From: a virus
Lineage: Duplodnaviria; Caudoviricetes
IMG/VR virus record: IMGVR_UViG_3300037461_001731
Coordinates: 4,355 to 68,354 of that record
Direction: 5' to 3' (one strand)
DNA length: 64,000 nucleotides
Shown here: piece after piece, positions 41,913 through 64,000 of the stretch
Position numbering within the stretch: position 1 is the first letter of the stretch
Layout of the letters: the number at the start of each line of letters is the position of its first letter
Position numbers and translations under genes: made by a program
Notes under the pieces: generated by a model
What the model saw: the letters and a program-made list of their open reading frames with translations, nothing else
Databases searched by the model: none
What the model was told of the DNA's origin: nothing

Positions 41913-42515
41913 ATGAATAATAAATATGTAAAATTTCTTGAAAAACATGTGGATTGGCATAGTATATCGAAAGATAAAAGGATATCAAAAGCTTTCATTA
42001 GAGAATTCCAGAACAAGGTTAGGTGGGAATATATTTCACGTTATCAAACGCTGTCAGAAAAATTCATTAGAGAATTTCAAGATAGAGTTAGTTGGGAATA
42101 TATTTCACATTATCAAACCTTATCAGAAGATTTTATACGAGAATTTAAAGATAATGTTAATTGGTATCATATTTCAAAGGATCAAACGTTGTCTGAAGAC
42201 TTCATTAGAGAATTTCAAGATAATGTTGATTGGGATTATGTTTCAGGTTGTCAAAAATTATCAGAAGACTTTATCAGAGAATTTAAAGATAAAGTTGATT
42301 GGATTCGCGTATCAGCATGTCAAACCTTATCAGAAGATTTCATAAGAGAATTTAAGGATGAAGTTGATTGGAGTCGTATTTCAATATGTCAAAAATTATC
42401 AGAAGACTTCATTAGAGAATTTAAAGATAGAGTTTATTGGGTAGCTATTTCATTATACCAAAAATTATCAAAAGATTTTATCAGAGAATTCAAACAAAAA
42501 GGTTATATAAAATGA
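41913..42515 (+). CDS. Trp-repeat protein, type B cap, 7 modules
   Basis: LSExFIREFxDxVxWxxISxxQ repeats. Confidence 0.9.
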   Translation: MNNKYVKFLEKHVDWHSISKDKRISKAFIREFQNKVRWEYISRYQTLSEKFIREFQDRVSWEYISHYQTLSEDFIREFKDNVNWYHISKDQTLSEDFIREFQDNVDWDYVSGCQKLSEDFIREFKDKVDWIRVSACQTLSEDFIREFKDEVDWSRISICQKLSEDFIREFKDRVYWVAISLYQKLSKDFIREFKQKGYIK

Positions 42516-43384
42516 AATGTGTAAATTGTAAAAATTTTAATATCTTTAGCACTTTTTGTAATACGTTAAGTCATCCAGTTGACCCTAATTATCATTGTAA
42601 TGGTTTTAGTAATATAAGTAATACTGTTATAAGTAACGCAAATTTAGATGCAGAGATCAAAAGAATATTGAGTTATTATGCTATAGACTATGATGTTAAC
42701 ATGTCCGGTAAAGATTTAATGCAATTTTGTAGAATAAATATTGATGACACGCAATTGGTTGAGGTGGTGTGGACTCAAAAACTATCAGAAGATTTTATTA
42801 GAGAATTTCAAGATAAAATTGACTGGAGCCACATTTTAATTAATCAAACATTATCAGAAAATTTCATCAGAGAATTTCAGGATAAAATTGACTGGGGTCT
42901 AATTTCATATAATCAAAAATTATCAGAAGACTTCATCAGAGAATTTAAAGATAAGGTTGACTGGTTTTGGATTTCTGAATGTCAAACGTTATCAGAAGAT
43001 TTCATTAGAGAATTTAAAGATAAGGTTGATTGGGATTATATTTCAGAGCATCAAATATTATCAGAAAACTTTATCAGAGAATTTCAAGACAAGGTTAACT
43101 GGGAGTGTATTTCAAGTTGTCAAACCTTATCAGAAGATTTCATTCGAGAATTTAAGGATAAGGTTGACTGGGATTATATTTCATATAATCAAAAATTATC
43201 AGAAGACTTCATCAGAGAATTTAAAGATAAGGTTGACTGGTTTTGGATTTCTGAATGTCAAACGTTATCAGAAGATTTCATTAGAGAATTTAAAGATAAG
43301 GTTGATTGGGATGAGATTTTAAAGCATCAAAAATTATCAACTAATTTCATCAATGAATTCAAACAGAAAGGTTATATTAAATGA
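42512..43384 (+). CDS. Trp-repeat protein, type C (Cys4) cap, 8 modules
   Basis: True start at the ATGA junction 42512 (MKCVNCKNF); the track start 42437 lies inside the previous gene. Confidence 0.9.
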   Translation: MKCVNCKNFNIFSTFCNTLSHPVDPNYHCNGFSNISNTVISNANLDAEIKRILSYYAIDYDVNMSGKDLMQFCRINIDDTQLVEVVWTQKLSEDFIREFQDKIDWSHILINQTLSENFIREFQDKIDWGLISYNQKLSEDFIREFKDKVDWFWISECQTLSEDFIREFKDKVDWDYISEHQILSENFIREFQDKVNWECISSCQTLSEDFIREFKDKVDWDYISYNQKLSEDFIREFKDKVDWFWISECQTLSEDFIREFKDKVDWDEILKHQKLSTNFINEFKQKGYIK

Positions 43385-43959
43385 ATAAAAAAGATATGTT
43401 AAAAGATGTTATTAATCAGTATAAACAGACACATCCTAATGATAAAAAAGATTTATTAAGTAATTTTTGGGAGGATATAAGTTATAAGGTTAAACTATCT
43501 GAAGCTTTTATCAGAGAATTTAAAGATAAAGTTTGCTGGATTAGTATTTCAGTACATCAAGAATTATCAGAAGATTTCATAAGAGAATTTAAGGATAGAG
43601 TTGAATGGAATTGGACTTCAGTAAATCAAAAATTATCAGAAGATTTCATGCGAGAATTCGAGTATAGAGTTAACTGGAGTTGGGTTTCAACGCGTCAAAC
43701 GCTGTCTGAAGATTTCATTAGAGAATTTAAAGATAAGTGGAATTGGAGTTATATTTCAAGTTGTCAAACCTTATCAGAAGATTTCATCAGAGAATTTAAG
43801 GATAAGGTTGAGTGGAGTTATATTTCAAGTTGTCAAACCTTATCAGAAAACTTCATTAGAGAATTTAAAGATAGAGTTGATTGGGATGAGATTTTAAAGC
43901 GTCAAAAATTATCAACTAATTTCATTAATGAATTCAAACAAAAAGGTTATATTAAATGA
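43381..43959 (+). CDS. Trp-repeat protein, type A cap, 6 modules
   Basis: MNKKDMLKDVINQYKQ cap + repeats. Confidence 0.9.
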   Translation: MNKKDMLKDVINQYKQTHPNDKKDLLSNFWEDISYKVKLSEAFIREFKDKVCWISISVHQELSEDFIREFKDRVEWNWTSVNQKLSEDFMREFEYRVNWSWVSTRQTLSEDFIREFKDKWNWSYISSCQTLSEDFIREFKDKVEWSYISSCQTLSENFIREFKDRVDWDEILKRQKLSTNFINEFKQKGYIK

Positions 43960-44489
43960 ATGAGAAATATAAAAATATAATTGAAAAACACGCAAACTGG
44001 AAAAGAATTTCTAAAGAAGAATTGTTATCAGAAGATTTCATTAGAGAATTTAAGGATAAAGTCTATTGGAGGAGTATTTCGATATATCAAACATTATCAG
44101 AAGACTTTATAAGAGAATTTAAGGATAAAGTTAAGTGGGGTAATATTTCAATATGTCAAACCTTATCGGAAGATTTCATTAGAGAATTTAAGAATAAGGT
44201 TGATTGGGAAAGTATTTCAGAATGTCAAATCTTATCAGAAGATTTCATTAGAGAATTTAAGGATAAGGTTGAGTGGGGTCATATTTCAAGTTGTCAAACC
44301 TTATCAGAAGATTTCATTAGAGAATTTAAGGATAAGGTTGAGTGGAGTTATATTTCAAGTTGTCAAACCTTATCAGAAGATTTCATTAGAGAATTTAAGG
44401 ATAAGGTTATTTGGTTTTGGATTTCAAGACATCAAACATTATCTGAAGACTTCATCAATGAATTCAAGCAGAAAGGGTATATTAAATGA
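43956..44489 (+). CDS. Trp-repeat protein, type B cap, 6 modules
   Basis: MNEKYKNIIEKHANW cap + repeats. Confidence 0.9.
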   Translation: MNEKYKNIIEKHANWKRISKEELLSEDFIREFKDKVYWRSISIYQTLSEDFIREFKDKVKWGNISICQTLSEDFIREFKNKVDWESISECQILSEDFIREFKDKVEWGHISSCQTLSEDFIREFKDKVEWSYISSCQTLSEDFIREFKDKVIWFWISRHQTLSEDFINEFKQKGYIK

Positions 44490-44926
44490 ATAAAAGAGAT
44501 ATGTTAAGAGATGTTATTAAGCAGTATAAACAAGAATGTTCTAATGATGAAGAAGATTTATTAATTAATTTTTGGGGGGATATAAGTTATAAGGTTAAAC
44601 TATCTGAAGCTTTTATCAGAGAATTTCAAAATAAGGTTAATTGGAGAGCTATTTCATGGAGTCAAACATTATCGGAAGACTTCATTAGAGAATTTAAGGA
44701 TAAAGTTAACTGGTATCATATTTCATGGCGTCAAACATTGTCAGAAAACTTCATTAGGGAGCTTCAAGATAAAGCTGATTGGTATTGTATTTCATATTAT
44801 CAAACATTATCAGAAGATTTTATTAGAGAATTTAAAGATAGAGTTAACTGGAGTTATATTTTATATAAACAAAAATTATCAACTAATTTCATCAATGAAT
44901 TCAAGCAGAAAGGTTATATTAAATGA
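44486..44926 (+). CDS. Trp-repeat protein, type A cap, 4 modules
   Basis: MNKRDMLRDVIKQYKQ cap + repeats. Confidence 0.9.
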   Translation: MNKRDMLRDVIKQYKQECSNDEEDLLINFWGDISYKVKLSEAFIREFQNKVNWRAISWSQTLSEDFIREFKDKVNWYHISWRQTLSENFIRELQDKADWYCISYYQTLSEDFIREFKDRVNWSYILYKQKLSTNFINEFKQKGYIK

Positions 44927-45801
44927 ATAAAGAATATACAGATATATTTAAAAAATACGCAAACTGGGAAAGAATTTCTAAAGAAGAACTGTTATCGGAA
45001 GATTTCATTAGAGAATTTGAAGCTGAAGTTAATTGGAATTGGATCTCATGGTATCAAACGCTATCAGAAGACTTCATTAGAGAATTCCAAGATGAAGTTA
45101 ATTGGTGTAAGATTTCAGAACGTCAAAAATTATCAGAAGACTTTATCAGAGAATTTAAAGGTGAAGTTTATTGGGCTGGGATTTCATGTCACCAAATGCT
45201 ATCAGAGGTCTTCATACGAGAATTTAAGAATAGAGTTGATTGGGTGGGTATTTCATCATGTCAAAAATTATCAGAAGATTTCATACGAGAATTTAAAGAT
45301 GAAGTTTATTGTGGTTATATTTCACAATATCAAGAATTATCAGAAGACTTCATTAGAGAATTTCAAGATAAAGTTAATTGGGGGCGTATTTCAAGATCTC
45401 AAACATTATCAGAAGATTTTATTAGAGAATTTAAGGATAAAGTTAATTGGGATTATATTTCAGAGCATCAAAAATTATCAGAAGACTTTATCAGAGAATT
45501 TAAAGGTGAAGTTTGCTGGATTAGTATTTCAGTACATCAAGAATTATCAGAAGACTTTATAAGAGAATTTAAGGATAAAGTTTATTGGGATTATATTTCA
45601 TGGCATCAAAAACTATCAGAAGATTTCATCAGAGAATTTAAGGATAAAGTTTATTGGATTCGTGTATCAGCATGTCAAACATTATCAGAAGATTTCATAC
45701 GAGAATTTAAAGATGAAGTTTATTGGGATTATATAGTTAGGCATCAAACACTATCAAAAGACTTTATTAATGAATTCAAGCAGAAGGGTTATATAGAATG
45801 A
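44923..45801 (+). CDS. Trp-repeat protein, type B cap, 11 modules
   Basis: MNKEYTDIFKKYANW cap + repeats. Confidence 0.9.
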   Translation: MNKEYTDIFKKYANWERISKEELLSEDFIREFEAEVNWNWISWYQTLSEDFIREFQDEVNWCKISERQKLSEDFIREFKGEVYWAGISCHQMLSEVFIREFKNRVDWVGISSCQKLSEDFIREFKDEVYCGYISQYQELSEDFIREFQDKVNWGRISRSQTLSEDFIREFKDKVNWDYISEHQKLSEDFIREFKGEVCWISISVHQELSEDFIREFKDKVYWDYISWHQKLSEDFIREFKDKVYWIRVSACQTLSEDFIREFKDEVYWDYIVRHQTLSKDFINEFKQKGYIE

Positions 45802-46124
45802 TTAAAAAATATAAAGATATAACTGAAAAATATATGGACTGGATGAGAATTTCTGAAGAAGAGTTGTTATCAGAAGACTTCATTAGGAAGTTTCAAGATA
45901 AAGTTTATTGGGGTTATATTTCACAATATCAAGAATTATCAGAAGACTTCATTAGAGAATTTCAAGATAAAGTCTATTGGAGGCGTATTTCGACATATCA
46001 AACATTATCAGAAGACTTTATAAGAGAATTTAAGGATAAAGTTGATTGGCGATATATTTCATATCATCAAAAACTATCAAAAGACTTTATTAATGAATTC
46101 AAACAGAAAGGTTATATAGAATGA
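45798..46124 (+). CDS. Trp-repeat protein, type B cap, 3 modules
   Basis: MIKKYKDITEKYMDW cap + repeats. Confidence 0.9.
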   Translation: MIKKYKDITEKYMDWMRISEEELLSEDFIRKFQDKVYWGYISQYQELSEDFIREFQDKVYWRRISTYQTLSEDFIREFKDKVDWRYISYHQKLSKDFINEFKQKGYIE

Positions 46125-46522
46125 ATAAAGAATATAAAAATATAATTGAAAAATATACATTTACTGACTGGGGAAGAATTTCTGAAGAAGAAACATTATC
46201 TGAAGATTTTATCAGGGAGTTTAAGGATAAAGTTTATTGGGGTTATATTTCAGCATGGCAAACATTATCAGAAGATTTCATACGAGAATTTGAAGATAAA
46301 GTTGATTGGGGTGATATTTCAACATATCAAAAATTATCTGAAGATTTCATACGAGAATTTAAAGATAAAGTTGATTGGGGTGATATTTCAACATATCAAA
46401 AATTATCTGAAAATTTTATTAGAGAATTTCAAGATAAAGTTAATTGGAGATGTATTTCAAGATCTCAAACATTATCAGAAGATTTTATTAAAGAATTCAA
46501 GCAGAAGGGTTATATTAAATGA
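46121..46522 (+). CDS. Trp-repeat protein, type B cap, 4 modules
   Basis: MNKEYKNIIEKYTFTDW cap + repeats. Confidence 0.9.
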   Translation: MNKEYKNIIEKYTFTDWGRISEEETLSEDFIREFKDKVYWGYISAWQTLSEDFIREFEDKVDWGDISTYQKLSEDFIREFKDKVDWGDISTYQKLSENFIREFQDKVNWRCISRSQTLSEDFIKEFKQKGYIK

Positions 46523-47040
46523 TATTTGTTACTTCGGATCATCATTTTGGGCATTATAAAATTCTTGAATATCAGAAAGATACAAGACCTTTTTGTACTA
46601 TAGACGATATGGATAATTTTTATATTGATTCATGGAATTCACAAGTATCAGATAAAGATACTGTCTATCATTTAGGTGATTTTTGCTTTAAAAATGCTAA
46701 ATTCTATTTTTCTAGATTAAGGGGGATAATAAAAGTTATTCCTGGAAATCATGACCGTTGGGCAAAAAAGAAAAAAGAGAAGTTATTTTCAGCGTCTAAC
46801 CGTGAAATAGAAATTTTGCAACCTGTGTGCGTTCTAAAAGTAGATAAAGTTAACAAGTTTGTGCTATGTCATTATCCTATGTATTCTTGGCCGCATTCAA
46901 ATTATGGAGTACTTCATTTTCACGGGCATACCCATAGAAAAATAGGATATAACGAAAATGCAATACATGTAGGTATTGATGAACATCAAAAATTACTAAG
47001 TTTAAGAGATTTTATGAAAGGTCTGTCATGGAAAAAATAG
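46519..47040 (+). CDS. calcineurin-like metallophosphoesterase
   Basis: SDHHFGH, LGDF, GNHD, HYP, HGHTH. Confidence 0.9.
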   Translation: MIFVTSDHHFGHYKILEYQKDTRPFCTIDDMDNFYIDSWNSQVSDKDTVYHLGDFCFKNAKFYFSRLRGIIKVIPGNHDRWAKKKKEKLFSASNREIEILQPVCVLKVDKVNKFVLCHYPMYSWPHSNYGVLHFHGHTHRKIGYNENAIHVGIDEHQKLLSLRDFMKGLSWKK

Positions 47041-47186
47041 TATTAAATATTATTTTATTAGTGAGTATTATTAGTATTCCTTTAATTTTTTCAATACCAA
47101 TTTTTTTAGACTATAAGCTTAAAAAATTGGAATTTTTAAGTAAAAAGTGTAAAGATAAAGATGAAAACAGAGATGAAAACTGGTGA
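47028..47186 (+). CDS. 52-aa single-pass membrane protein (not in the track)
   Basis: MEKIVLNIILLVSIISIPLIFSIPIFLDYKLKK..., translated by hand. Confidence 0.5.
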   Translation: MEKIVLNIILLVSIISIPLIFSIPIFLDYKLKKLEFLSKKCKDKDENRDENW

Positions 47187-47989
47187 TTATGATGACAAAA
47201 CCTTTTGTTAAATGGGTGGGCGGCAAGACGTCCATACTTAAGCAGTTAGTCAATAATTTTCCTAAGAACTACGATAATTATTATGAGCCTTTTGTTGGTG
47301 GAGGAGCAGTTTACTTTCAAATATTGGCTAAAAACGCTAACTTAAATGATTCAAATGGTGAATTAATAAATTCTTATAAGATTGTTAAGCACCATGTGGA
47401 AGATCTTATCTCCGAATTATTTTTGTATGAAAATACTAAGGAGTTTTTTATGGGAATAAGAGCCAAAAACCCTTTATTCCTATCTCCTGTAGAAAGAGCA
47501 GCCAGATTTATCTATTTAAATAAAACGTGTTTTAATGGTTTGTATAGAGTTAATTCAAAAAATCAGTTTAATGTTCCCTATGGGGGTTATCTTAATGCTA
47601 ATTTTTGTGATAAAAAAACTTTAAGAGATTGTTCTGAAGCGTTAAAAACTGCAAGTTTGGACGCTTCTTGTTTTTCTAATTATTTAGAAAAGGTTAATAC
47701 AAACAATACTTTTGTGTATTTAGATCCACCATATTACCCCTCTGAAAATAATTCTTTTGTTTCTTATACTAAGAGAGGTTTTGGTGAAAAAGATCATGAA
47801 CTTTTGTGCGATTGGTATAAAAAGCTTGACAGAAAGGGTGTAATGGTGTTACTATCTAATAGTGATTGTGATTGGACGAGGCTAAATTATTCTAAATTTA
47901 GAATAATTGAGGTAACTAGTAGAAGGTCTGTTGGTAGTGCTTCTGTGAGCAGGGGCAAGTATTCAGAGTTGTTAATTGCTAATTATTAG
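47183..47989 (+). CDS. dam: Dam-like DNA adenine methyltransferase
   Basis: KPFVKWVGGK, EPFVGGGAV, YLNKTCFNGLYRVN, YLDPPY. Confidence 0.93.
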   Translation: MIMMTKPFVKWVGGKTSILKQLVNNFPKNYDNYYEPFVGGGAVYFQILAKNANLNDSNGELINSYKIVKHHVEDLISELFLYENTKEFFMGIRAKNPLFLSPVERAARFIYLNKTCFNGLYRVNSKNQFNVPYGGYLNANFCDKKTLRDCSEALKTASLDASCFSNYLEKVNTNNTFVYLDPPYYPSENNSFVSYTKRGFGEKDHELLCDWYKKLDRKGVMVLLSNSDCDWTRLNYSKFRIIEVTSRRSVGSASVSRGKYSELLIANY

Positions 47990-48258
47990 TGTTTACAAAC
48001 AAGAGGTTTTTAGGAGCACCGATGAAGTTTAATATTTTTAAAAGATTAGCTGATTTAGAAAATAGTGTTTATGAGCTTATTTTAACTGCGCGAGTACTTA
48101 CAAATTGCTGGATCAAGGACTCTGACAAAATTTTTAAAATTATAGAGGATATTAATAGTTTAAAAAGTTGTATGGTAGTACAAGAGCGGATTTTGACAGA
48201 ATTAACAAGTATGTTGCAGTTAAAGTGTGGAAAGATAGATAAAGATAAGTTAAACTAA
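47989..48258 (+). CDS. small hypothetical protein (likely start ATG 48022)
   Basis: AGGAG RBS before MKFNIFK. Confidence 0.5.
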   Translation: MFTNKRFLGAPMKFNIFKRLADLENSVYELILTARVLTNCWIKDSDKIFKIIEDINSLKSCMVVQERILTELTSMLQLKCGKIDKDKLN

Positions 48259-48283
48259 TAATTTTTATGAAAGGAGTGCTTGT

Positions 48284-49152: not shown

Positions 49153-49515
49153 GTGGCTGACTACGAAAAAGAACTAAACAGTTTTTTAGAACTTATTGAA
49201 AATACTGGGGTTTCTAAAAGTTTTAAAGAAAAAATGTATCCATTAGTGGAGCGTATTTTTAAAGAATTTGATGGTGAACTTAAAAATGAATTGTTGACTT
49301 TGGCTACAGAGTGTGCTATAACTAAAGCTGAAACTGAAAGTTCATTAGAAAATATAAGAATAAAATTAGGAGAAATGCAAAAAGAAAATGAATATTTAAG
49401 AGAAGCTATTAGAATTACTGTGGATTTAGTTAAAAAGAAAAAAGAAGAATGTGAGAATATAATTTCTAGTCATTATTTAAGTAAGTTAGGTGGAAAGAGT
49501 AGCATCGAGAGCTAA
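49153..49515 (+). CDS. coiled-coil hypothetical protein
   Basis: 120-aa ORF. Confidence 0.55.
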   Translation: MADYEKELNSFLELIENTGVSKSFKEKMYPLVERIFKEFDGELKNELLTLATECAITKAETESSLENIRIKLGEMQKENEYLREAIRITVDLVKKKKEECENIISSHYLSKLGGKSSIES

Positions 49516-50755
49516 AATGTCAAACCTATGCAACGATATGGCTAATGTTCTAACTTATTATAATGTTCCTTTTGAGGAAGACTTTGTTTTTGAAAAGTTT
49601 AATGAGTTAGTTAAGACACTGTCTGAAGAAGATTGGCATTTTCTTTGTAGGAATCTAAGGTTTTCCGAAGAATTTCTGCAAAAATTTGGTGAGAACTTAA
49701 ACTGGAACTTAGTTTCTTTGTTTCAAAAATTATCAGAGAGTTTTATAGAAAAAAATATAAAAAAAATAAATATTTTAAGTTTATCTGCTTATGTTAAGCT
49801 GTCTCCTGAATTCATAGATAGATACATAGATATGCTTGATCTTGAAATTTTGGTAAAAAGGCAGTTTCTCCCAGATTGGCTGATTGAAAAACATATTGAG
49901 TTATTTAAAGTTTCTTTTTTTAGTAAGCTTGACAATAAGAACATTACGTATTTAAAATTATGTGGAAGGCATCAAATTTTAGAAGAAGATCTTATTAAAA
50001 AGTACATAGAATATTTTGATTTTGAAGACCTTATCAGAAATCAACCATTGTCTGCCTTTTTTTTGGAGGACAATGTTGAAAAAATTAATTTTAAGCTAAT
50101 TTCATGTTTTCAAGTTCTATCTGAAAATTTTATTGAAAAACATTTAGAAAAATTTACATTTAAGCATTTGGCTAAGTACCAAAAGCTTTCGGAAGAGTTC
50201 ATTGATAAATATTTTAATAATTTTGTAAAAGATGAGGCTATTTCTTACTTGTGTAAGTACCAAGCCTTGTCAAAAAAGATTGTTAATAAATACATAAAAC
50301 TTTTAGATGAAGAAGCCCTTGGAAAGTATCAAATGCTTCCAAAAGGTTTTTTGAGTAAAAATGGGGTAAAAGTAAGCGAAGAGAATTGGTTTCATAAATC
50401 TAAAAATTTTAAAATCAATTATTTAAAGAATAACACAAAGTGTGAAATTGTGGATAACAACTATATTATAGCTTATATGGGCGTAAGATACAAAAATTAC
50501 GCTTTAGATAATTTTAGGAATAAATTCCTTGTTGATGTAAAGTATAAGGCATCGTGTAATGACTACATAGAAGGTCGCAAAGGTTCCGGGTTTATGGTGT
50601 GGCTAGATCCGGATTTAGCGGATCTTTTTTATGACAGTGATAAAGTGTTAAAAGTAAAAGTAAATATAAAAGACATAAGTTATATTCATCTAAAGGATGA
50701 TTTTATAAATGGGTGCGTTAACTGCTATGCGTTAGTAGTACTCAAGGAGATTTAG
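49490..50755 (+). CDS. divergent Trp-repeat family protein with extra C-terminal domain (probable start 49517)
   Basis: 23-aa periodic units such as FSEEFLQKFGENLNWNLVSLFQK and LSEEFIDKY; about 120-aa non-repetitive C-domain. Confidence 0.75.
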   Translation: MERVASRAKMSNLCNDMANVLTYYNVPFEEDFVFEKFNELVKTLSEEDWHFLCRNLRFSEEFLQKFGENLNWNLVSLFQKLSESFIEKNIKKINILSLSAYVKLSPEFIDRYIDMLDLEILVKRQFLPDWLIEKHIELFKVSFFSKLDNKNITYLKLCGRHQILEEDLIKKYIEYFDFEDLIRNQPLSAFFLEDNVEKINFKLISCFQVLSENFIEKHLEKFTFKHLAKYQKLSEEFIDKYFNNFVKDEAISYLCKYQALSKKIVNKYIKLLDEEALGKYQMLPKGFLSKNGVKVSEENWFHKSKNFKINYLKNNTKCEIVDNNYIIAYMGVRYKNYALDNFRNKFLVDVKYKASCNDYIEGRKGSGFMVWLDPDLADLFYDSDKVLKVKVNIKDISYIHLKDDFINGCVNCYALVVLKEI

Positions 50756-51877: not shown

Positions 51878-52516
51878 ATGGCAAAGTTATATTTTAAGTA
51901 CGGGACTGTTAGCAGCGCAAAAACTTTGAATCTTCTTGCTGTAGCACACAGTTATAAAAGTCAAAATAAGAAAGTTCTTCTGGTAAAACCTGAAATAGAT
52001 TCTCGTTGGGGGAAAGACGTGATAAAATCTAGAGCAGGTTTAGAGCAAAAAGCTGATATTGTATTAACAGATATTTCAGACATTTTAAATAATTCGGATA
52101 TTCGTAATTCTGAATTAGCGTGTGTTCTAGTAGATGAGGCTCAATTTTTGTCTCATTCTGCGATTAATGCTCTACGTTTTGTTGCTACGTCTTTAGACGT
52201 TCCAGTAATCTGTTATGGGCTTAGATCAGATTTTAAATCTTTTCTATTTGAAGGCTCTAGAAGGTTGTTTGAAATAGCGGATTCTATAGAAGAAATAGAA
52301 AACACTTGCTTTTTTTGTAATAAGAAAGCTACTCAAAATCTTAAACACGTTAACGGAAAACCAACGATTTTTGGGGATAGTATAGATTTAGGTGCAGAAG
52401 AGAAGTATTTGCCCGTTTGTTATGCTTGTTATGAACATAAGATAGCTAGTAGCTACGAAGGATCTTTGAAGGTCAGAATAGACGGTAGCACGTTTGACGA
52501 GAATTTGGTTGGGTGA
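51878..52516 (+). CDS. tdk: thymidine kinase
   Basis: YFKYGTVSSAKT, VDEAQF, YGLRSDF, CxxC...CxxC. Confidence 0.93.
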   Translation: MAKLYFKYGTVSSAKTLNLLAVAHSYKSQNKKVLLVKPEIDSRWGKDVIKSRAGLEQKADIVLTDISDILNNSDIRNSELACVLVDEAQFLSHSAINALRFVATSLDVPVICYGLRSDFKSFLFEGSRRLFEIADSIEEIENTCFFCNKKATQNLKHVNGKPTIFGDSIDLGAEEKYLPVCYACYEHKIASSYEGSLKVRIDGSTFDENLVG

Positions 52517-54866: not shown

Positions 54867-55337
54867 TTACTTTGTTTCCTCAAACAATATATAACATATT
54901 AAACTTTCTATCACTCCTTCAGTATTTACTGGACTAGCACAATTCCCGTATCGCTCTAGGCTAATTTCCATGTTATGTAGGATAGCGTCTTTTTGACTAC
55001 AAATTAGTCTTTTTTTGTTGATTTCTTTTGTAAAGACTGATTTTCCAGACAAAATCATTTGCTTATAGTACTCCGTTGGGATTTTTTCTAAAATTAAGCT
55101 ATTATAATAAATTAAACCATATAAAAGTTCTTGTTTTGGGGATTTCGTTGTTATAAAGTCATTAAAATCTTCGTTAACTTTTGCTAGTACTTTTTCTTCT
55201 AATTTTGAGAAAAAATACAAAAAGTTTTCTTTTTTTATTTCTGTTATAAAATCGCAAAATTTTTCTATATTTTTCATTTTTTTCTCCAAAAAAGCAGTTG
55301 ATTTAGTATTTAAGATAACCTTTTTGCTTGAATTCAT
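54867..55337 (-). CDS. hypothetical protein (probable start at MKNIEK)
   Basis: Follows the minus-strand repeat genes; GGAG RBS before MKNIEK. Confidence 0.55.
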   Translation of the reverse strand: MNSSKKVILNTKSTAFLEKKMKNIEKFCDFITEIKKENFLYFFSKLEEKVLAKVNEDFNDFITTKSPKQELLYGLIYYNSLILEKIPTEYYKQMILSGKSVFTKEINKKRLICSQKDAILHNMEISLERYGNCASPVNTEGVIESLICYILFEETK

Positions 55338-55677
55338 TAATGAAACTGGTTGATAGCCTTTGATTGTTAACTATATAACCCCAATCAACTTCATCTTTAA
55401 ATTCTCTGATGAAATCTTCTGATAATTTTTGACACATTGAAATCCATGTCCAGTTAACCTTATCTTTAAATTCTCTGATAAAATTTTCTGATAGTTTTTG
55501 ATATTGTAAAATAAAACGCCAGTCAACTTTATCCTTAAATTCTCTAATAAAATCTTCTGATAGCTTAACATAATTACTCACTTCTTTCCAAAAATCCTTT
55601 AATAAGTCTTTTTTATCATTAGGATATTTCTGCTTATACTGATTAATAACATCTTTTAACATATCTTTTTTATTCAT
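55303..55677 (-). CDS. Trp-repeat protein, type A cap, 3 modules (array 2)
   Basis: MNKKDMLKDVINQYKQ cap + repeats + FINEFKQKGYLKY. Confidence 0.9.
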   Translation of the reverse strand: MNKKDMLKDVINQYKQKYPNDKKDLLKDFWKEVSNYVKLSEDFIREFKDKVDWRFILQYQKLSENFIREFKDKVNWTWISMCQKLSEDFIREFKDEVDWGYIVNNQRLSTSFINEFKQKGYLKY

Positions 55678-56138
55678 TTAATATAACCTTTCTGCTTGAA
55701 TTCTCGTATGAAATCTTCTGACAATGTTTGATATTTTGATATATGATACCAACTAACTTTATCTTTAAATTCTCTAATGAAATCTTCTGATAATTTTTGA
55801 CCCCATGAAATATTTTTCCAATTAACTTTATCCTTAAATTCTCGTATGAAGTCTTCTGACAATGTTTGATGCCATGAAATACAATACCAACTAACCTTAT
55901 CTTGAAACTCTCTAATGAAGTCTTCCGATAGTGTTTGCTTATGAGAAATATGATCCCAGACAACCTCATCCTTAAATTCTCTAATGAAATCTTCTGATAA
56001 TTTTTTAGCCCATGAAATGCTGCCCCAGTCACCCGTATCTTTAAATTCTCTAATGAAATCTTCTGGTAATTTTTTTTCTTTAGAAATTTTCTTCCAATCT
56101 ATATATTCAATAAGTATATATATATTTATTTTATTCAT
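55674..56138 (-). CDS. Trp-repeat protein, type B cap, 5 modules (array 2)
   Basis: Start at the ATGA junction (MNKINIY). Confidence 0.9.
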   Translation of the reverse strand: MNKINIYILIEYIDWKKISKEKKLPEDFIREFKDTGDWGSISWAKKLSEDFIREFKDEVVWDHISHKQTLSEDFIREFQDKVSWYCISWHQTLSEDFIREFKDKVNWKNISWGQKLSEDFIREFKDKVSWYHISKYQTLSEDFIREFKQKGYIK

Positions 56139-56190
56139 TCTATATACCATTTCTGCTTGAATTCATTAATGAAATTTTCAGATTATGTGA
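56135..56190 (-). pseudogene. orphan, inactivated C-cap/junction (SENFINEFKQKWYIE*)
   Basis: Matches the conserved gene end, but ACATAA replaces ACATTA and there is no upstream gene. Confidence 0.8.
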
Positions 56191-56217
56191 TTTCTTTATT
56201 TCTTGAACCATAGTAAT

Positions 56218-57359: not shown

Positions 57360-57381
57360 CTAACAGTTAAAAGATTGATGA

Positions 57382-57413: not shown

Positions 57414-57420
57414 ATTTAAA

Positions 57421-57792: not shown

Positions 57793-57853
57793 CATATCTT
57801 TTTTAGTGTGTTATGTTTTTAATAAGAGTTGTGCTACTAAGAAAGGAAATTAT

Positions 57854-58198
57854 ATGGAAAAAATTATAAAAACATACAAAAATTTTAATCTAGTATTGGA
57901 AGAAAAGTACAAAAAAGGTCATAGGAATCCTTGTCACATTTTTATGGATGATAAAAAGTTGTGCACCTTTAATTTTTGGCAGAAAAGATATTCAAATACT
58001 GTAATTGCTGAACAAGCCTTTACTGCTTTGACTAAGATTTTTCCAAAATACGTGGCAGACTTGGCCAATGAAGCTTTGATAAGTTCTTTTTCCAATTCTT
58101 TTGCTAAAAAGGTTAAAAGTCTTGCTATCAAAGAGCGTAAGCTGCTAAAAAGAAAGCCAAGTCTTTTTGGAAAAAAACTTGTAGAACTGGGAGTTTAG
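57854..58198 (+). CDS. hypothetical protein
   Basis: MEKIIK start after AAAGGA. Confidence 0.5.
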   Translation: MEKIIKTYKNFNLVLEEKYKKGHRNPCHIFMDDKKLCTFNFWQKRYSNTVIAEQAFTALTKIFPKYVADLANEALISSFSNSFAKKVKSLAIKERKLLKRKPSLFGKKLVELGV

Positions 58199-58200
58199 CT

Positions 58201-58626
58201 ATGAGGCTTCGTTTTGTAGCAGATCTGAAAAATCTTTCAAAAAAGAAAAAAATTAAAAATTACACATATAACTTGGCACAGTGTGATGAATTATTTTTAT
58301 TTTTTAATGATAGTTTGTCTGTTCCCAGACTTTACTTTTTTCATGAAGAAGATTTGATTGTGTCAAATAGTGCTTTTGAATCCTTATCATTACGACATAA
58401 GAGGGCTTGCATCCTACATGAATTAGGGCATAGAGAGCTTAAACATAAAGATGATATTAGCAATAAAGTGAAAAATGAATTTGAAGCTGATGATTTTTCA
58501 CAAAAAGCTGGATATGGAAAAGAGTTGTACGATATTCTTTCCTTATCCGCAAAAAAATTAGCAAAAGAAAAAAATGATGTTAGTTTCCTTGTAGAACGGG
58601 CAAAAAGGTTGTTAAAGAGTAATTAA
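58201..58626 (+). CDS. M48-like zinc metallopeptidase domain protein
   Basis: LHELGH...NEFEADDFS..AGYG. Confidence 0.7.
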   Translation: MRLRFVADLKNLSKKKKIKNYTYNLAQCDELFLFFNDSLSVPRLYFFHEEDLIVSNSAFESLSLRHKRACILHELGHRELKHKDDISNKVKNEFEADDFSQKAGYGKELYDILSLSAKKLAKEKNDVSFLVERAKRLLKSN

Positions 58627-58672
58627 ATTATCTTGAATGCTAGAGTATTCAGGTTTTATTTTTGGAGGATAA

Positions 58673-58912
58673 ATGATTGAAATTACTGTAAGTAGCGCAT
58701 TTATGGCGCAAGATCTTTATGAAATTTTTGAAAAAGATGGCGTTCTTTGTTATAAATGTGTGAACGTTAAGCTTATTCAGAACTTGAGTGAAACTTTTAC
58801 AGCAGGAATGATAATCCCTTATTGTGAAATAGTTCAAGACGTTGTTACATTTAAAGATGAAAATGGTGATACCTTGGGGGTTTTTAAACTACTAGAGGAA
58901 GTGCAAGAATAA
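58673..58912 (+). CDS. hypothetical protein
   Basis: GGAGG RBS, 79 aa. Confidence 0.55.
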   Translation: MIEITVSSAFMAQDLYEIFEKDGVLCYKCVNVKLIQNLSETFTAGMIIPYCEIVQDVVTFKDENGDTLGVFKLLEEVQE

Positions 58913-59156
58913 TCTTATTTAAATTTTTTACAATAAATATTTGATCGAGCAGCTTTGGTTTACACTACAAAAGGACTGTAGTTATAATTTGTGGTGTAAA
59001 TTAGTTGCTTTAATTAAGGTTAATTGTTATAAATTGTGATAAAATTACTTTTTAGCGAAATACTTTTATATTTTGGACATACCAAGTCAAGCAATTCTTA
59101 TTAAAATCAAATACTTATCAGTAACTTAGAAAAATCAAAAAATTTTTGAAAAAATC

Positions 59157-59185
59157 TTGACAACCCGCCAAGCCTGGTTTATATT
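59157..59185 (+). promoter_or_regulatory. sigma70 promoter (twin of 61442)
   Basis: TTGACA-17 bp-TATATT; flanks identical to the 61442 promoter. Confidence 0.75.
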
Positions 59186-59226
59186 ATAAATAGAAGACGG
59201 GATATAACTAAAAAGGAGAAAGAAAA

Positions 59227-59520
59227 ATGGTTGTAATTTCAAGAAATAAAGCGGAAAAACTAAGAGCCTTGTATAAGCCCCAATTTATAGGAAAATCAAG
59301 CTTTTTCGAAACTGCTATTTTTCTTTATTTAAGGCATAATTTACAATCTAGCCAAAAAGCCATTGTCAATTCTTTTTTAAGTGTACTTTGTAGCGAGTGT
59401 ATCGATCAAATCGCAGACGTTTTGTCTTCTGAAAAATTATTGACTTTATTTGTTGTTACAGAAAATTTAAATGAATGTTATTATGTATTTAACGGTGAAA
59501 TAGACCACATAAATGATTAA
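59227..59520 (+). CDS. hypothetical protein
   Basis: AAGGAG RBS, 97 aa. Confidence 0.55.
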   Translation: MVVISRNKAEKLRALYKPQFIGKSSFFETAIFLYLRHNLQSSQKAIVNSFLSVLCSECIDQIADVLSSEKLLTLFVVTENLNECYYVFNGEIDHIND

Positions 59521-59525
59521 ATATC

Positions 59526-59900
59526 ATGAAATGTAATAACTGTAGAAACTTTAATATTTTCAGTACTGTATGTAATATATTCAGTCATCCAGTTGATCCT
59601 AATTATTATTGTAATAGTTTTAGTAATACAAATAATAGCGCTGTAAGTAATACAAATACGAACGAAGCTGTTAAACATACTAATTTGTATTATCTTGAAC
59701 AAGGTATAGAATTTCAAATAATAAGTATTTATAATGAAGTTATGGATCAAAAAGTAGAAGCAGCAACCTCAGAACAAGCAGCTATTTTTAAAGCGCAAAT
59801 TTTTGTAGAGAAATTATTGGAAGCGGGTATGTCTCTTTCGGAAGCTAAAGCAATATGTGGTTTAACAAAAGACAAAGGTTTTAATTCACTTTTTAGTTAA
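59526..59900 (+). CDS. chimeric protein: type C Cys4 cap fused to a copy of the C-terminal domain of the 1026-aa virion-like protein
   Basis: N-half matches 42512/63074; C-half matches 28861-29055. Confidence 0.85.
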   Translation: MKCNNCRNFNIFSTVCNIFSHPVDPNYYCNSFSNTNNSAVSNTNTNEAVKHTNLYYLEQGIEFQIISIYNEVMDQKVEAATSEQAAIFKAQIFVEKLLEAGMSLSEAKAICGLTKDKGFNSLFS

Positions 59901-59925
59901 AACAAGGGCTTATTATGTCGGAAAA

Positions 59926-59988
59926 ATGGAATTAAAACTGTCATACAATTTCATTAATGAATTCAAACAGAAAGGGTATATAAAATGA
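59926..59988 (+). CDS. 20-aa zero-repeat mini-ORF consisting only of the C-cap (MELKLSYNFINEFKQKGYIK)
   Basis: Translated by hand; ends in the ATGA junction of 59985. Confidence 0.5.
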   Translation: MELKLSYNFINEFKQKGYIK

Positions 59989-60704
59989 ATAAAAAAGATA
60001 TGCTAACAGACGTCATTAAGCAGTATAAACAGAAATATCTTAATTATAAAAAAGATTTATTAAATGATTTTTGGGATTATATAAGTTATAAGGTTAAATT
60101 ACCAGAAGCTTTTATCAGAGCATTTAAAGATAATGTTAATTGGTATTGTATATCAGAGCACCAAAAATTATCTGAAGATTTCATACGAGAATTTAAGGAT
60201 AATGTTGATTGGGATTGGATTTCATTTTATCAAGCACTGTCAGAAGATTTTATACGAGAATTTAAGGATAATGTTAATTGGTATTGTATTTCATGGCATC
60301 AAAAACTATCAGAAGATTTCATCAGAGAATTTAAGGATGAAGTTAGCTGGGATTATATTTCACAACATCAAAAATTATCAGAAGATTTTATACGAGAATT
60401 TAAAGATAGGGTTGATTGGTATCGGATTTCATGTCATCAAAAACTATCAGAAGACTTTATCAGAGAGTTTAAGAGTAGAGTTTGCTGGATTGGTATTTCA
60501 CATTATCAAATATTATCAGAGGATTTTATAAGGGAATTTAAGGATAAAGTTTATTGGAATTATATTTCAGCATGGCAAACATTATCAGAAGATTTCATAC
60601 GAGAATTTGAAGATAAGGTCGACTGGTGGAATTATATAGTTAAGTATCAAAAATTATCAACCAGCTTCATTAATGAACTCAAGCAGAAAGGGTATATAAA
60701 ATGA
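59985..60704 (+). CDS. Trp-repeat protein, type A cap, 8 modules (array 3)
   Basis: MNKKDMLTDVIKQYKQ cap + repeats. Confidence 0.9.
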   Translation: MNKKDMLTDVIKQYKQKYLNYKKDLLNDFWDYISYKVKLPEAFIRAFKDNVNWYCISEHQKLSEDFIREFKDNVDWDWISFYQALSEDFIREFKDNVNWYCISWHQKLSEDFIREFKDEVSWDYISQHQKLSEDFIREFKDRVDWYRISCHQKLSEDFIREFKSRVCWIGISHYQILSEDFIREFKDKVYWNYISAWQTLSEDFIREFEDKVDWWNYIVKYQKLSTSFINELKQKGYIK

Positions 60705-61417
60705 ATAAAAGAGATATGTTAAAAGATGTCATTAAACAATATAAGCAGATATATCCTAATGATAAAAAATACTTATTAAAAGATTTTTATGAAATAATAG
60801 GTATAAATTGTGAACTGTCTGAAGATTTTATAAGAGAATTCCAAAATAAGGTTAATTGGAATAATATTTCACTGTACCAAACATTATCAGAAGATTTCAT
60901 TAGAGAATTTAAAGATGAAGTATGCTGGTATTATATTTCAACACATCAAACACTATCAGGAGACTTCATTAGAGAATTTAAGAATAAGGTTGATTGGTCT
61001 TGTATTTCAGGGTGTCAAAAACTATCAGAAGATTTCATCAGAGAATTTAAGAATAAAGTTGACTGGTATTATATTTCAATACATCAGACGTTATCAGAAA
61101 ACTTCATAAGAGAATTTCAAGATAAAGTTGATTGGGAATATATTTCATGTCATCAAAAACTATCAGAAGACTTTATAAGAGAATTTCAAGATAAAGTTGA
61201 TTGGTATAACATTTCATGGCATCAAACATTATCAGAAGATTTTATCAGAGAATTCCAAGATAAAGTTAACTGGGGTTGTATTTCAGCATATCAAAAATTA
61301 TCTGAAGATTTTATTATAGAATTTAAGAATAAAGTTGGCTGGAAATATATTTCAGAATATCAAAGCCTATCAACCAATTTCATTAATGAATTCAAGCAGA
61401 AAGGGTACATTAAATGA
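60701..61417 (+). CDS. Trp-repeat protein, type A cap, 8 modules (array 3)
   Basis: MNKRDMLKDVIKQYKQ cap + repeats. Confidence 0.9.
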   Translation: MNKRDMLKDVIKQYKQIYPNDKKYLLKDFYEIIGINCELSEDFIREFQNKVNWNNISLYQTLSEDFIREFKDEVCWYYISTHQTLSGDFIREFKNKVDWSCISGCQKLSEDFIREFKNKVDWYYISIHQTLSENFIREFQDKVDWEYISCHQKLSEDFIREFQDKVDWYNISWHQTLSEDFIREFQDKVNWGCISAYQKLSEDFIIEFKNKVGWKYISEYQSLSTNFINEFKQKGYIK

Positions 61418-61441
61418 ATTTTAAAAATATTTGAAAAAATC

Positions 61442-61470
61442 TTGACAATCCACCAAATCCATCTTATATT
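61442..61470 (+). promoter_or_regulatory. sigma70 promoter (twin of 59157)
   Basis: TTGACA-17 bp-TATATT. Confidence 0.75.
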
Positions 61471-61511
61471 ATAAATAGAAGATGCGACAAACAAAAAAGG
61501 AGATAAGAAAA

Positions 61512-61748
61512 ATGTATTGTAGAATATGTGGCTCAGAACGAAATGCTCGATATAGGGCATCTAAATTACAATTTCTTTGTAAAGAATGTAATAAGGATAC
61601 TCCTAAAAAAATATCTTATGACGATTTTACAGAAAAATTTTGGAGAAACGATGATAATGTGCCTTTTTCGATGAAAAGAGAATTTTATCAGGATTATCTT
61701 TCTTCATGCTGTACTTATGACGAGTATGTTATAGCTGTTACAGGTTAG
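61512..61748 (+). CDS. small zinc-finger protein
   Basis: CRIC...CKEC; ATG after AAGGAG. Confidence 0.6.
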   Translation: MYCRICGSERNARYRASKLQFLCKECNKDTPKKISYDDFTEKFWRNDDNVPFSMKREFYQDYLSSCCTYDEYVIAVTG

Positions 61749-61770
61749 CTATTTTAGAAAGGAAAAAACT

Positions 61771-62079
61771 ATGATTAAAGAATACACTTTTGACCATATT
61801 GTAACCGCTTGGGATTTTATCAATAATACCGATTATGTTTGGGTAGAAAGACTTAAACTTAACGCTGACAATATATATAAGGCGATTCAGGATTTTGTTA
61901 TATTTAATTTAAAATCTGATTTGCGACAAGGGGTTGAATGTTATGTTGATTATGTCTTTCGTGACAATTGGACGCTAGATGAATACAAGCTAAAGTTTGG
62001 TAAAGAAGCTTTAAACCGCCTTAGAAAAACAATTGATCTACGTGAGAATAACGAAATAATTTTTTCAGAAGATATTTAA
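61771..62079 (+). CDS. hypothetical protein, paralog of 53619-53921
   Basis: See paralog. Confidence 0.7.
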   Translation: MIKEYTFDHIVTAWDFINNTDYVWVERLKLNADNIYKAIQDFVIFNLKSDLRQGVECYVDYVFRDNWTLDEYKLKFGKEALNRLRKTIDLRENNEIIFSEDI

Positions 62080-62089
62080 AAGAGGCTCA

Positions 62090-62413
62090 ATGGAAAAAGA
62101 ATACTGGATAGTTTATTTGCACGATTCTTTGTGTGGAACAAGTACAAGATTGGTAATGCTTGACCATGCGCCAAATAAGGCGGAAATCCTTAGATTGTTT
62201 AAGTATTATATAAATTTTTTTCTAAAAAAATGTGAAGGATTTAAACAGTCAATGTCTATTTCTTTTTTAAAAGATTTGGATGATGATGCTGTGTCTGCTA
62301 CTGAAATTTTGTACAAATACACTGTAAAAAGGCTTAGCTACACAGTGGAAAAACAAACGGATGAGGCAGAGATAAGCAATAAATTTAGTCTTCCAAAAGA
62401 ATATCTGGTTTAA
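62090..62413 (+). CDS. hypothetical protein
   Basis: GAGG RBS, 107 aa. Confidence 0.55.
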   Translation: MEKEYWIVYLHDSLCGTSTRLVMLDHAPNKAEILRLFKYYINFFLKKCEGFKQSMSISFLKDLDDDAVSATEILYKYTVKRLSYTVEKQTDEAEISNKFSLPKEYLV

Positions 62414-62420
62414 AAAGATA

Positions 62421-62449
62421 TTGACATTTTATTATTTAATAGTTATATT
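62421..62449 (+). promoter_or_regulatory. sigma70 promoter
   Basis: TTGACA-17 bp-TATATT. Confidence 0.7.
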
Positions 62450-62511
62450 TTAATTAGAAGTTGGTAAAAATGTACTAAAAAGGTACGGTTTATCAAAAGG
62501 AGAATTTAGAA

Positions 62512-63051
62512 ATGGAAGTGTTAACTAAAGGTGTGAATCACAATTTTTTTTGCGCACTAGTTGTAGAATTTAAAAATGAAGAGTATACTATAAATTTAAC
62601 AAATATTGAAAAGAGTCAGATTTTAAATGCATTAAGTAGTTTTGATTTAAATAAAATATATGTACAAGATTTTTTAGGATTAGAATCTATTGTAAATTCT
62701 ATTTTAGAATATTTCAAAAATAAGTCTTTTGAAGAATGTTTAGACTATGCGCTTGATGTTGTTAACTTATTTCAAGAGTATGGAGATCTTTTTATAGCCG
62801 TCTATGATGAAGAAAATTGTTTAAATGCAGTGAAAAAAATTTTTAGAGAGTACCAGTATAGCGGTTATTGTGAAAACTTGGGAACTTTTGCAAAAATAAA
62901 ATTGTTATCAAGGTACACTTTGCCGGAAATCGCAATAAAACATATAAATTGGGAAAAATTGGCGATAGATTTTCTAAAAACGGAAGATGGTTCTTATCTT
63001 TTTTATCGTGATTACGAAGGAGACGGATATTACATAATGATCAAAAATTGA
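62512..63051 (+). CDS. ArdA-like antirestriction protein
   Basis: C-terminal YSGYCENLGTFAK...LPEIAIKHINWEKLAIDF parallels ArdA (YQG.Y....FA....IP......DYE..ARDL). Confidence 0.5.
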   Translation: MEVLTKGVNHNFFCALVVEFKNEEYTINLTNIEKSQILNALSSFDLNKIYVQDFLGLESIVNSILEYFKNKSFEECLDYALDVVNLFQEYGDLFIAVYDEENCLNAVKKIFREYQYSGYCENLGTFAKIKLLSRYTLPEIAIKHINWEKLAIDFLKTEDGSYLFYRDYEGDGYYIMIKN

Positions 63052-63073
63052 TCTGTAAATAAGGTTATATAAA

Positions 63074-63877
63074 ATGAAATGTGTAAATTGTAAAAATTTT
63101 AATATCTTTAGCACTTTTTGTAATACGTTAAGTCATCCGGTTGACCCTAATTATCATTGTAATAGTTTTAGTAATATAAGTAATACTGTTATAAGTAACA
63201 TAAATTTAGATGAAGAGATCAAAAGAGTATTGAGTTATTCTGCTATAGACTATGATAGTAATCTATCTGGTAACGATTTAGTGCAATTCTGTAGGATAAT
63301 TCTTAATAATGATCAATGTGGTAGAATAGGATGGACCCAAAAATTATCTGAAGATTTCATACGAGAATTTAAGGATAATGTTGATTGGCATTGTATTTCA
63401 ATACATCAAATATTGTCAGAAGATTTTATACGAGAATTTAAGGATAGGGTTGATTGGGGGTCTATTTCAGAATTTCAAACATTATCAGAAGATTTCATAC
63501 GAGAATTTAAGGATAGGGTTGATTGGAGAAATATATCAATAGATCAAACACTATTAGAAGATTTCATACGAGAATTTAAGGATAGGGTTGATTGGGATTA
63601 TATTTCAGAGCATCAAGTACTGGTAGAAGATTTCATCAGAGAGCTTAAAGACAAGGTTGATTGGGGTATGATTTCATATTATCAAACACTATTAGAAGAT
63701 TTCATACGAGAATTTAAGGATAGGGTTGATTGGGATTATATTTCAGAGCAGCAAACATTATCAGAAGATTTCATACGAGAATTTAAGGATAGGGTTGATT
63801 GGGATACGATTCCATATTACCAAACATTATCAACCAATTTCATTAATGAATTCAAGCAGAAAGGTTATATAAAATGA
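63074..63877 (+). CDS. Trp-repeat protein, type C (Cys4) cap, 7 modules (array 4)
   Basis: N-cap nearly identical to 42512. Confidence 0.9.
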   Translation: MKCVNCKNFNIFSTFCNTLSHPVDPNYHCNSFSNISNTVISNINLDEEIKRVLSYSAIDYDSNLSGNDLVQFCRIILNNDQCGRIGWTQKLSEDFIREFKDNVDWHCISIHQILSEDFIREFKDRVDWGSISEFQTLSEDFIREFKDRVDWRNISIDQTLLEDFIREFKDRVDWDYISEHQVLVEDFIRELKDKVDWGMISYYQTLLEDFIREFKDRVDWDYISEQQTLSEDFIREFKDRVDWDTIPYYQTLSTNFINEFKQKGYIK

Positions 63878-64000
63878 ATAAAAAAGATATGTTAAAAGAT
63901 GCTATTAAGCAGTATAAACAGGAATATCCTAATTATAAAAAAAGTTTATCAGAAGATTTTTGGTCAGAAATAAGCCGTTATGCTAAATTATCAGAAGATT
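63874..64000 (+). CDS. Trp-repeat protein, type A cap, 3'-truncated by the window edge
   Basis: MNKKDMLKDAIKQYKQ...LSED after an ATGA junction. Confidence 0.85.
   Translation, partial: MNKKDMLKDAIKQYKQEYPNYKKSLSEDFWSEISRYAKLSED

Follow-up and report, generated by a model that had tools for sequence, protein, structure and literature searches.

Tryptophan-repeat genes in four arrays

The DNA considered here forms the final 64 kb of a virus record of 68,354 bp (IMG/VR IMGVR_UViG_3300037461_001731, Caudoviricetes, record positions 4,355 to 68,354; G+C 31%; estimated completeness ~38%), and we call this whole stretch of 64,000 nucleotides the window. From position 41913 to its end, the window carries a set of small genes whose products are built from 23-residue modules with a nearly invariant tryptophan (Trp). 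A first-pass annotation, made from the sequence alone, had described 13 complete genes and one partial gene in four arrays, with about 80 modules counted by hand at a 69-nt period, and both counts are borne out. Tandem Repeats Finder confined the 69-nt arrays, plus 138- and 207-nt higher-order periods, to the same four blocks (41913-46522, 55303-56138, 59985-61417, and 63074 to the end), and translation with motif anchoring gave 13 complete genes and one cut by the contig end, which starts at 63874. That census had overlooked a fifteenth, divergent member at 49490-50755, and the record, estimated to be 38% complete, holds its 15 Trp-repeat members within 22 kb. The members are as follows.

41913..42515, plus strand: Trp-repeat gene, N-cap type A, 7 modules and C-cap; its stop overlaps the next start (ATGA)
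42512..43384, plus strand: Trp-repeat gene, Cys-rich N-cap type C (~90 aa), 8 modules and C-cap; PHROG 3532, E 1e-101
43381..43959, plus strand: Trp-repeat gene, N-cap type B, 6 modules and C-cap
43956..44489, plus strand: Trp-repeat gene, type A, 6 modules and C-cap; query of the homologue search
44486..44926, plus strand: Trp-repeat gene, type B, 4 modules and C-cap
44923..45801, plus strand: Trp-repeat gene, type A, 11 modules and C-cap; protein modelled with AlphaFold2 (AF2), predicted local distance difference test (pLDDT) 83.8
45798..46124, plus strand: Trp-repeat gene, type A, 3 modules and C-cap
46121..46522, plus strand: Trp-repeat gene, type A, 4 modules and C-cap; its stop overlaps the metallophosphoesterase start
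49490..50755, plus strand: divergent member, 421 aa, degenerate repeats and a C-terminal domain; PHROG 3532, E 7e-40
55303..55677, minus strand: Trp-repeat gene, type B, 3 modules and C-cap
55674..56138, minus strand: Trp-repeat gene, type A-like, 5 modules and C-cap; the list of open reading frames (ORFs) extends it to an ATG at 56150
59985..60704, plus strand: Trp-repeat gene, type B, 8 modules (one of 24 aa) and C-cap; an orphan C-cap remnant precedes it
60701..61417, plus strand: Trp-repeat gene, type B, 8 modules and C-cap
63074..63877, plus strand: Trp-repeat gene, Cys-rich type C cap, 7 modules and C-cap; complete
63874..64000, plus strand: start of a further type B gene, truncated by the contig end; ATGA overlap with the stop of 63074-63877

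When modules are delimited by anchoring on the F-I-R-E-F motif, the 13 complete genes hold 80 full 23-residue modules and 13 C-cap half-modules, with a spacing of 23 residues everywhere except in one 24-residue module. Each gene carries 3 to 11 modules built on the LSE-FI-EF frame of the family, and the Trp is present in 78 of 79 modules. The N-caps are of three types (A in six genes, B in five plus the partial gene, and the Cys-rich type C in two), and their forms are a degenerate repeat, an MNKKDML... leader, and a Cys-rich domain of ~90 residues. A single C-cap type, ...FI(N/R/K)EFKQKGYI(K/E), ends the proteins. Copy number, N-caps, and C-cap agree with the counts reported at first pass.

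Adjacent genes are tightly joined. Stop and start codons overlap as ATGA at eight internal junctions, and the last gene of the first array (46121-46522) overlaps the metallophosphoesterase gene at 46519-47040 in the same way. The conserved codons of the C-cap (…AAAGGTTATATAAAATGA) hold a Shine-Dalgarno (SD)-like AAGG ~10 bases upstream of the next ATG, together with that start codon itself. Such overlaps and junction codons suggest operons whose genes are coupled in translation.

Remnants of the C-cap/start junction also precede the first gene of every array (41888-41912, 56139-56200, 59925-59984, and 63052-63073). Before 59985 the remnant reads ...NFINEFKQKGYIK, and before 63074 it reads GGTTATATAAA; the next gene's SD-like AAGG also falls within the junction. 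The ATG at 56150 sits within such a remnant, and 56138, the start given in the first-pass annotation, is most likely the true start of that minus-strand gene. A 124-aa ORF (59526-59900) starts with the Cys-rich cap (CxxC...C...C) of the genes at 42512 and 63074, and beyond the cap its sequence is unrelated; the cap looks like a small domain that can be separated.

A constant frame and a variable helical face

The module scaffold had been described as almost invariant, with hypervariable residues before the Trp, after it, and after the I-S pair, and per-position entropy agrees. Thirteen core frame positions have entropies of <=0.6 bits, positions 4, 10, 11, 12, and 23 are intermediate (0.9-1.9 bits), and positions 14, 16, 17, 20, and 21 reach 2.5-3.9 bits. 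Read as five-residue words, these variable positions give 74 distinct words among 80 modules.

The AF2 model of the 11-module protein (44923-45801), based on 78 sequences, is all-helical with no strands (pLDDT 83.8; predicted template modelling score, pTM, 0.73), and DSSP assigns helix A to module positions 3-8 and helix B to positions 15-21 in every well-modelled repeat. The modelled protein is an alpha-solenoid with two helices per repeat and a constant frame, much as the first-pass annotation had supposed, and L1, F5, I6, F9, V13, W15, and I18 would form its shared core. On a helical wheel of helix B, the variable residues fall between 100 and 240 degrees and the conserved ones between 300 and 40 degrees: W15, I18, S19, and Q22 lie within a 100-degree arc, and positions 16, 17, 20, and 21 occupy the opposite 140-degree arc. 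The helix and its geometry put these four positions together, as expected from the earlier proposal that residues i, i+1, i+4, and i+5 share one helical face. Position 14, usually Asp or Asn, caps the N-terminal end of the helix. Positions 16, 17, 20, and 21 and the N-cap at 14 would point off the core, and the stacking of 3 to 11 modules would turn them into a continuous stripe that differs from paralogue to paralogue.

Searches of the repeat model with Foldseek against the PDB returned nothing at E <=0.001. VIA-align against solved structures gave only generic alpha-solenoid rows (ankyrin/DARPin, HEAT/alphaRep, PPR, and PUF) at Z <=5.7, and PDB searches by sequence gave only spurious or faint matches.

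Module DNA is only ~75% identical, a value that is equal within and between genes, and the ratio of nonsynonymous to synonymous differences per site (pN/pS) is 0.00-0.27 at most frame positions. The frame, nearly invariant despite this low DNA identity, is therefore under strong purifying selection. The diversity is old. At positions 16, 17, 20, and 21, pN/pS is 1.85, 1.44, 0.94, and 1.47, with both quantities saturated. Ratios of nonsynonymous to synonymous rates (dN/dS) of 3-6.7, obtained from closest pairs of modules, were rejected as biased, since the pairs had been picked by frame similarity, which lowers dS. A cross-validated version, in which one half of the frame served to pick the pairs and the other half to measure dS, removed the excess and gave variable-site dN over dS of 0.45-2.2. 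The variable sites change as fast as silent sites (dN ~ dS, saturated).

What the variable sites accept is far from neutral. Tyr (18.7%), Asp (12.9%), Asn (8.4%), Cys (8.4%), His (7.8%), and Trp (4.8%) are enriched, while Lys (2.5%), Ile (3.3%), Leu (0.8%), and Pro (0%) are depleted and Arg stands at 5.8%. By chi-square, this composition departs from the neutral expectation for the base composition (p 5e-88) and from the window's own proteins (p 5e-128). The variable codons are mostly NNT, with a purine at 87% of second codon bases. A special mutational origin of the NNT codons was considered and rejected, as T-ending codons are ordinary usage in this genome (74-84%).

Family membership and relatives

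The genes belong to the named "tryptophan repeat gene family," which is already known and widespread. They match PHROG 3532 (function unknown) at E 1e-64 to 1e-101; Pfam and NCBIfam hold no model for the repeats. By tblastn, the family occupies 30 places in Listeria phage LPJP1, 28 in Bacillus phage G, and 35 in Bacillus phage BpSp, and it also appears in Clostridium phage c-st and in large enterobacterial phages. The BpSp match is annotated "tryptophan repeat gene family protein" and stands among arrays such as gp053-058. When the model of 44923-45801 was compared with BFVD, the matches, at E 1e-8 to ~1e-23 overall, included the entomopoxvirus proteins MSV027 (E 2e-23, 42% identity), AMV029 (1e-22), and MSV205, proteins of Pithovirus, Marseillevirus, and Orpheovirus, and phage G gp558-563. 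The link to "tryptophan repeat" proteins of entomopoxviruses and large phages, which the first reading had drawn, is supported along all of these lines.

An exhaustive HMMER search found 7,122 cluster representatives from metagenomes (50% identity) at E <=1e-3 and 3,593 at E <=1e-10. The positions that vary in the window also vary in 218 modules of 16 other viral contigs (up to 441 kb), where the residue preferences are similar, and the consensus of 78 homologues agrees on both counts. Two close homologues, P0153 and P0225, are annotated in firefly (Ignelater luminosus) and spider (Argiope bruennichi) assemblies, the spider scaffold being 137 Mb long; they may be viral insertions or contamination.

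The window itself comes from a phage without a close cultured relative, given that its DNA polymerase (8679-10886) shares <30% identity with that of every cultured phage in the collection. No near-identical DNA was found in cultured phages, and flanking proteins led to no close relatives in IMG/VR or the JGI metagenomes; the best phosphoesterase relative in that search was 49% identical and had no repeat genes nearby.

A C-terminal domain and other fusions

The divergent member at 49490-50755 ends in a domain of ~125 aa (50378-50752). A conserved C-terminal domain of ~110 aa is carried by ~110 of the best 120 homologues of 97-310 aa. Modelled alone, the domain reached pLDDT 87.3 and pTM 0.83, and the large majority of its 50 best VIA rows were chains of the ADP-ribosyltransferase (ART) fold, led by BC2332 (Z 6.7), Arr (6.1), a Tpt1-type enzyme (5.9), TreX (5.6), and diphtheria toxin (5.4), with PARPs, pertussis toxin, DarT, and ParT lower down. 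Foldseek gave weak rows to CNFy, PARP16, and Arr, the best at E 0.04. The fold is predicted to be ART-like, a term we use because the absolute scores are low; membership in the ART superfamily is left open.

Residues conserved in the domain of the relatives include A-Y-[K/R]-G in the first strand, E-N-S-F-G, and K-x-R; no mapping of these to an H-Y-E or R-S-E triad was achieved. The domain has no convincing Pfam match and no NCBIfam family, and the ESM Atlas returned only unnamed viral clusters. Other partners also occur. The metagenome protein P0312 (713 aa) has an N-terminal DSP/Tyr-phosphatase domain (Pfam E 4e-10) followed by tryptophan repeats, and this was the one informative fusion in Pfam scans of 18 long relatives. 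In entomopoxvirus AMV254, tryptophan repeats are reported alongside an F-box (PMC7728225). Repeats joined to such varied effector or adaptor domains are as expected of a target-recognition module.

Genome setting

The arrays sit among replication and nucleotide-metabolism genes, not virion genes. Between them lie the metallophosphoesterase gene (46519-47040), a D12-class N6-adenine DNA methyltransferase gene (47183-47989), and a thymidine kinase gene (51878-52516). Elsewhere in the window, a perfect three-copy tandem repeat of 39 nt, encoding an Ala/Pro/Gln-rich stretch, lies at 28687-28802 inside a 1026-aa ORF (25975-29055) with no PHROG match.

Discussion

We put a probability of roughly 0.55 on the reading that these genes encode a fixed, anciently diverged repertoire of protein-binding solenoids, which in relatives are the targeting arms of effector domains. 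The paralogues would be small alpha-solenoids of the tryptophan repeat family, soluble and probably cytoplasmic, and each would most likely recognise a different protein target through its own stripe of variable residues. Candidate targets would be proteins of the host or of the phage itself that are encountered in the course of an infection, perhaps in host takeover or counter-defence. As a recognition module, the repeat array would be usable alone or fused to an effector domain, and its diversity would be the old, fixed outcome of gene and module duplication followed by divergence, with no active hypermutation. The first-pass annotation had seen a binding surface in the variable face: the strongly non-neutral composition, which resembles that of a binding surface, speaks for this. 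Its diversifying library is left undemonstrated, dN at the variable sites being about equal to dS.

Several observations weigh against this interpretation. Positive selection is not proven by the substitution rates, and the outward exposure of the variable residues follows from predicted secondary structure and helix geometry, not from measured accessibility. The likeness of the repeat model to known binder scaffolds is generic, and our literature search found no functional study or solved structure of the tryptophan repeat family. The effector side of the proposal has difficulties of its own, for the 13 canonical genes of the window have no effector domain, the ART-like match is weak in absolute terms (Z <=6.7), and the window copy at 49490-50755 has M, R, C, and N at four positions where its relatives keep polar residues.

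A bolder form of the idea, which we hold to be possible but speculative, is that the solenoids serve a phage effector system as exchangeable targeting arms. Most relatives would have these arms fused to the ART-like domain, or else to a phosphatase or an F-box, and here they would have been freed as at least 13 stand-alone binders, each blocking or redirecting a different host protein such as a defence component. This would make them a natural viral counterpart of alphaRep and DARPins.

Other explanations read the same modules differently. It is doubtful that the proteins are structural or self-assembling, as parts of a scaffold, a compartment, or a virion decoration, with variable residues that amount to surface noise or packing adjustments. 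Solenoids frequently form scaffolds, these proteins are small and numerous, and a dN not clearly above dS is what relaxed constraint would give. Yet the variable sites avoid Lys, Leu, Ile, Val, Phe, and Pro, residues that this AT-rich genome otherwise favours, and the same bias recurs in unrelated phages. The genes also lie among replication genes of early type, and the enzyme-like domain fusions of relatives fit targeting better; a slighter point is that the main text of a BpSp virion proteomics paper contains neither "tryptophan" nor "repeat," gp045 or gp053. Nucleic-acid reading with a per-repeat code, of the TALE, PUF, or PPR kind and with one base per module read through positions 16, 17, 20, and 21, had been raised at first pass and now looks unlikely. 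The design itself would suit such a code: PUF and PPR proteins also use short modules in which two to four residues of one helix set the specificity, 3 to 11 modules would give useful site lengths, and weak structural rows to PUF and PPR chains were obtained (Z 4.2-4.4). Tyr, His, Arg, Asn, Ser, and Cys are typical base contacts of PUF proteins. These Z scores are, however, no better than those to ankyrin or HEAT chains, and 74 words in 80 modules go far beyond the needs of a four-letter alphabet. The predicted isoelectric point is <7 in 10 of the 13 proteins, three proteins have a net charge of -20, the frame contributes about -1 per module, and the variable face has a net charge of -40 over 395 residues, with just 2.5% Lys and 5.8% Arg. 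Proteins and variable faces this acidic argue against a nucleic-acid code and for protein recognition.

Least probable of all, in our estimate, is that Cys and His at positions 17 and 21 (i, i+4) form sites for zinc or another metal along the solenoid surface. Cys (8.4%) and His (7.8%) are about six times as frequent among variable residues as in the window's other proteins, and 57 of 79 modules have His, Tyr, or Cys at position 21, but Cys/His pairs at 17/21 within modules number 7 where 7.0 are expected. Adjacent modules show no enrichment either, the lone nominal signal (21/21, p 0.04) being uncorrected for 23 tests, and the codons of Tyr, His, and Cys are one transition apart. Active diversification, by a diversity-generating retroelement or by cassette recombination that rewrites variable codons in phage populations, is likewise unlikely, and strongly so; the first reading had spoken of a diversifying library, which the data do not demonstrate. 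Variation is limited to a few codons, mostly NNT, a few modules are common to different genes, and the conserved junctions with orphan remnants before the arrays could allow cassettes to be exchanged. Against this, silent differences between modules run through the whole frame (75% identity, whether modules are compared within or between genes), so that no single template could be the source of the modules and the differences extend well beyond the adenine positions of a template, where a retroelement would place them. T-ending codons follow the ordinary usage of the genome, and the 87% purine at the second codon base points to selection on residue type rather than to adenine mutagenesis. The 68-kb record has no reverse transcriptase match (PF00078), weak evidence in a record that is ~38% complete. 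The comparison of strains used near-identical pairs of other phages with the tryptophan repeat family, from different samples, the window phage having no close relative in the collections searched. L029 and L032 are 100% identical over 13.9 kb that includes five repeat genes, L027 and L028 are 99.96% identical with four base differences in 10.6 kb (at frame positions 4, 5, and 10), and L040 and L041 differ at one frame residue; the differences in the latter two pairs fall only at frame positions 1, 4, 5, and 10, and the variable positions are identical in all three pairs. The L027/L028 pair can also be counted in favour of diversification, for all four of its differences fall within a single repeat gene, the 20-module gene at L027:9562-10317, whose other modules carry the alternative residues at those positions. 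This clustering of a few differences may be inter-module conversion or assembly noise.

The interest of protein-binding solenoids at this locus lies partly in the size of the family, with ~7,100 cluster representatives across jumbo phages, entomopoxviruses, and giant viruses. The window displays the family design clearly: a rigid frame under strong purifying selection bears one helical stripe of antibody-like composition that is different in nearly every module. If these proteins are specific binders, they would constitute a major class of viral host-interaction factors that is so far unexplored, and protein engineering would gain a compact 23-residue scaffold. The ART-like C-terminal domain, which lies outside the Pfam families, is a concrete biochemical handle. 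As the cultured phages LPJP1, BpSp, and G hold 28 to 35 matching places each, function can be approached by experiment.

Comparison with known systems

The closest counterparts are the PHROG 3532 arrays of jumbo phages (phage G gp558-563, BpSp gp045 and gp053-058, LPJP1, and c-st), which are direct homologues and likewise consist of small genes in tandem. They differ in that identity to the window genes is at most 52% and the window phage is otherwise unrelated; the three cap types and coupled ATGA junctions are described here for the window genes. The entomopoxvirus tryptophan repeat family (MSV027, MSV029, MSV205, AMV029, and AMV254) and its giant-virus homologues share the 23-residue repeat with its invariant Trp, are also multicopy in large DNA viruses, and also have no known function. 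In contrast to the genes of the window, they belong to viruses of insects and protists, their caps and copy number are unlike, and AMV254 has an F-box (PMC7728225), which the window genes lack. Families that join repeats to an effector, such as the poxvirus ankyrin/F-box host-range proteins and the phage repeat-ART fusions, likewise combine a variable repeat with a constant C-terminal domain in many members. Here the ART-like domain occurs in relatives and in 49490-50755, whereas the 13 canonical genes have none.

Among classical repeat proteins, several memberships do not apply. The leucine-rich repeat (an LxxLxLxxN strand in a parallel sheet) is incompatible with an AF2 model without strands. 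The ankyrin/DARPin family, whose 33-residue repeat is a helix-turn-helix plus a beta-hairpin, is set apart by the period of 23 in the window, by the lack of any Ank among Pfam matches even at E up to 1, and by structural rows at Z 4-5.7. TALE, PUF, and PPR proteins have periods of 33-36 and a basic binding surface, and the mostly acidic window proteins have no Pfam match to them.

The nearest parallel in design is with the engineered binders alphaRep (HEAT-like) and DARPins (ankyrin). Their sequence and fold are not those of the window proteins: the period is 31 or 33 instead of 23, no match is significant (alphaRep A3 gives a faint sequence match at E 0.07, and the DARPin, ankyrin, and alphaRep structural rows are generic at Z 3.8-5.7), and the modelled modules lack an ankyrin-like beta-turn. 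The resemblance is one of design, an analogy and not a membership. The randomised positions of alphaRep follow the same i, i+1, i+4, i+5 pattern, and as modelled, the tryptophan-repeat modules of the window, like alphaRep and DARPins, would set a constant frame behind variable residues at i, i+1, i+4, and i+5 on one helix of every repeat.

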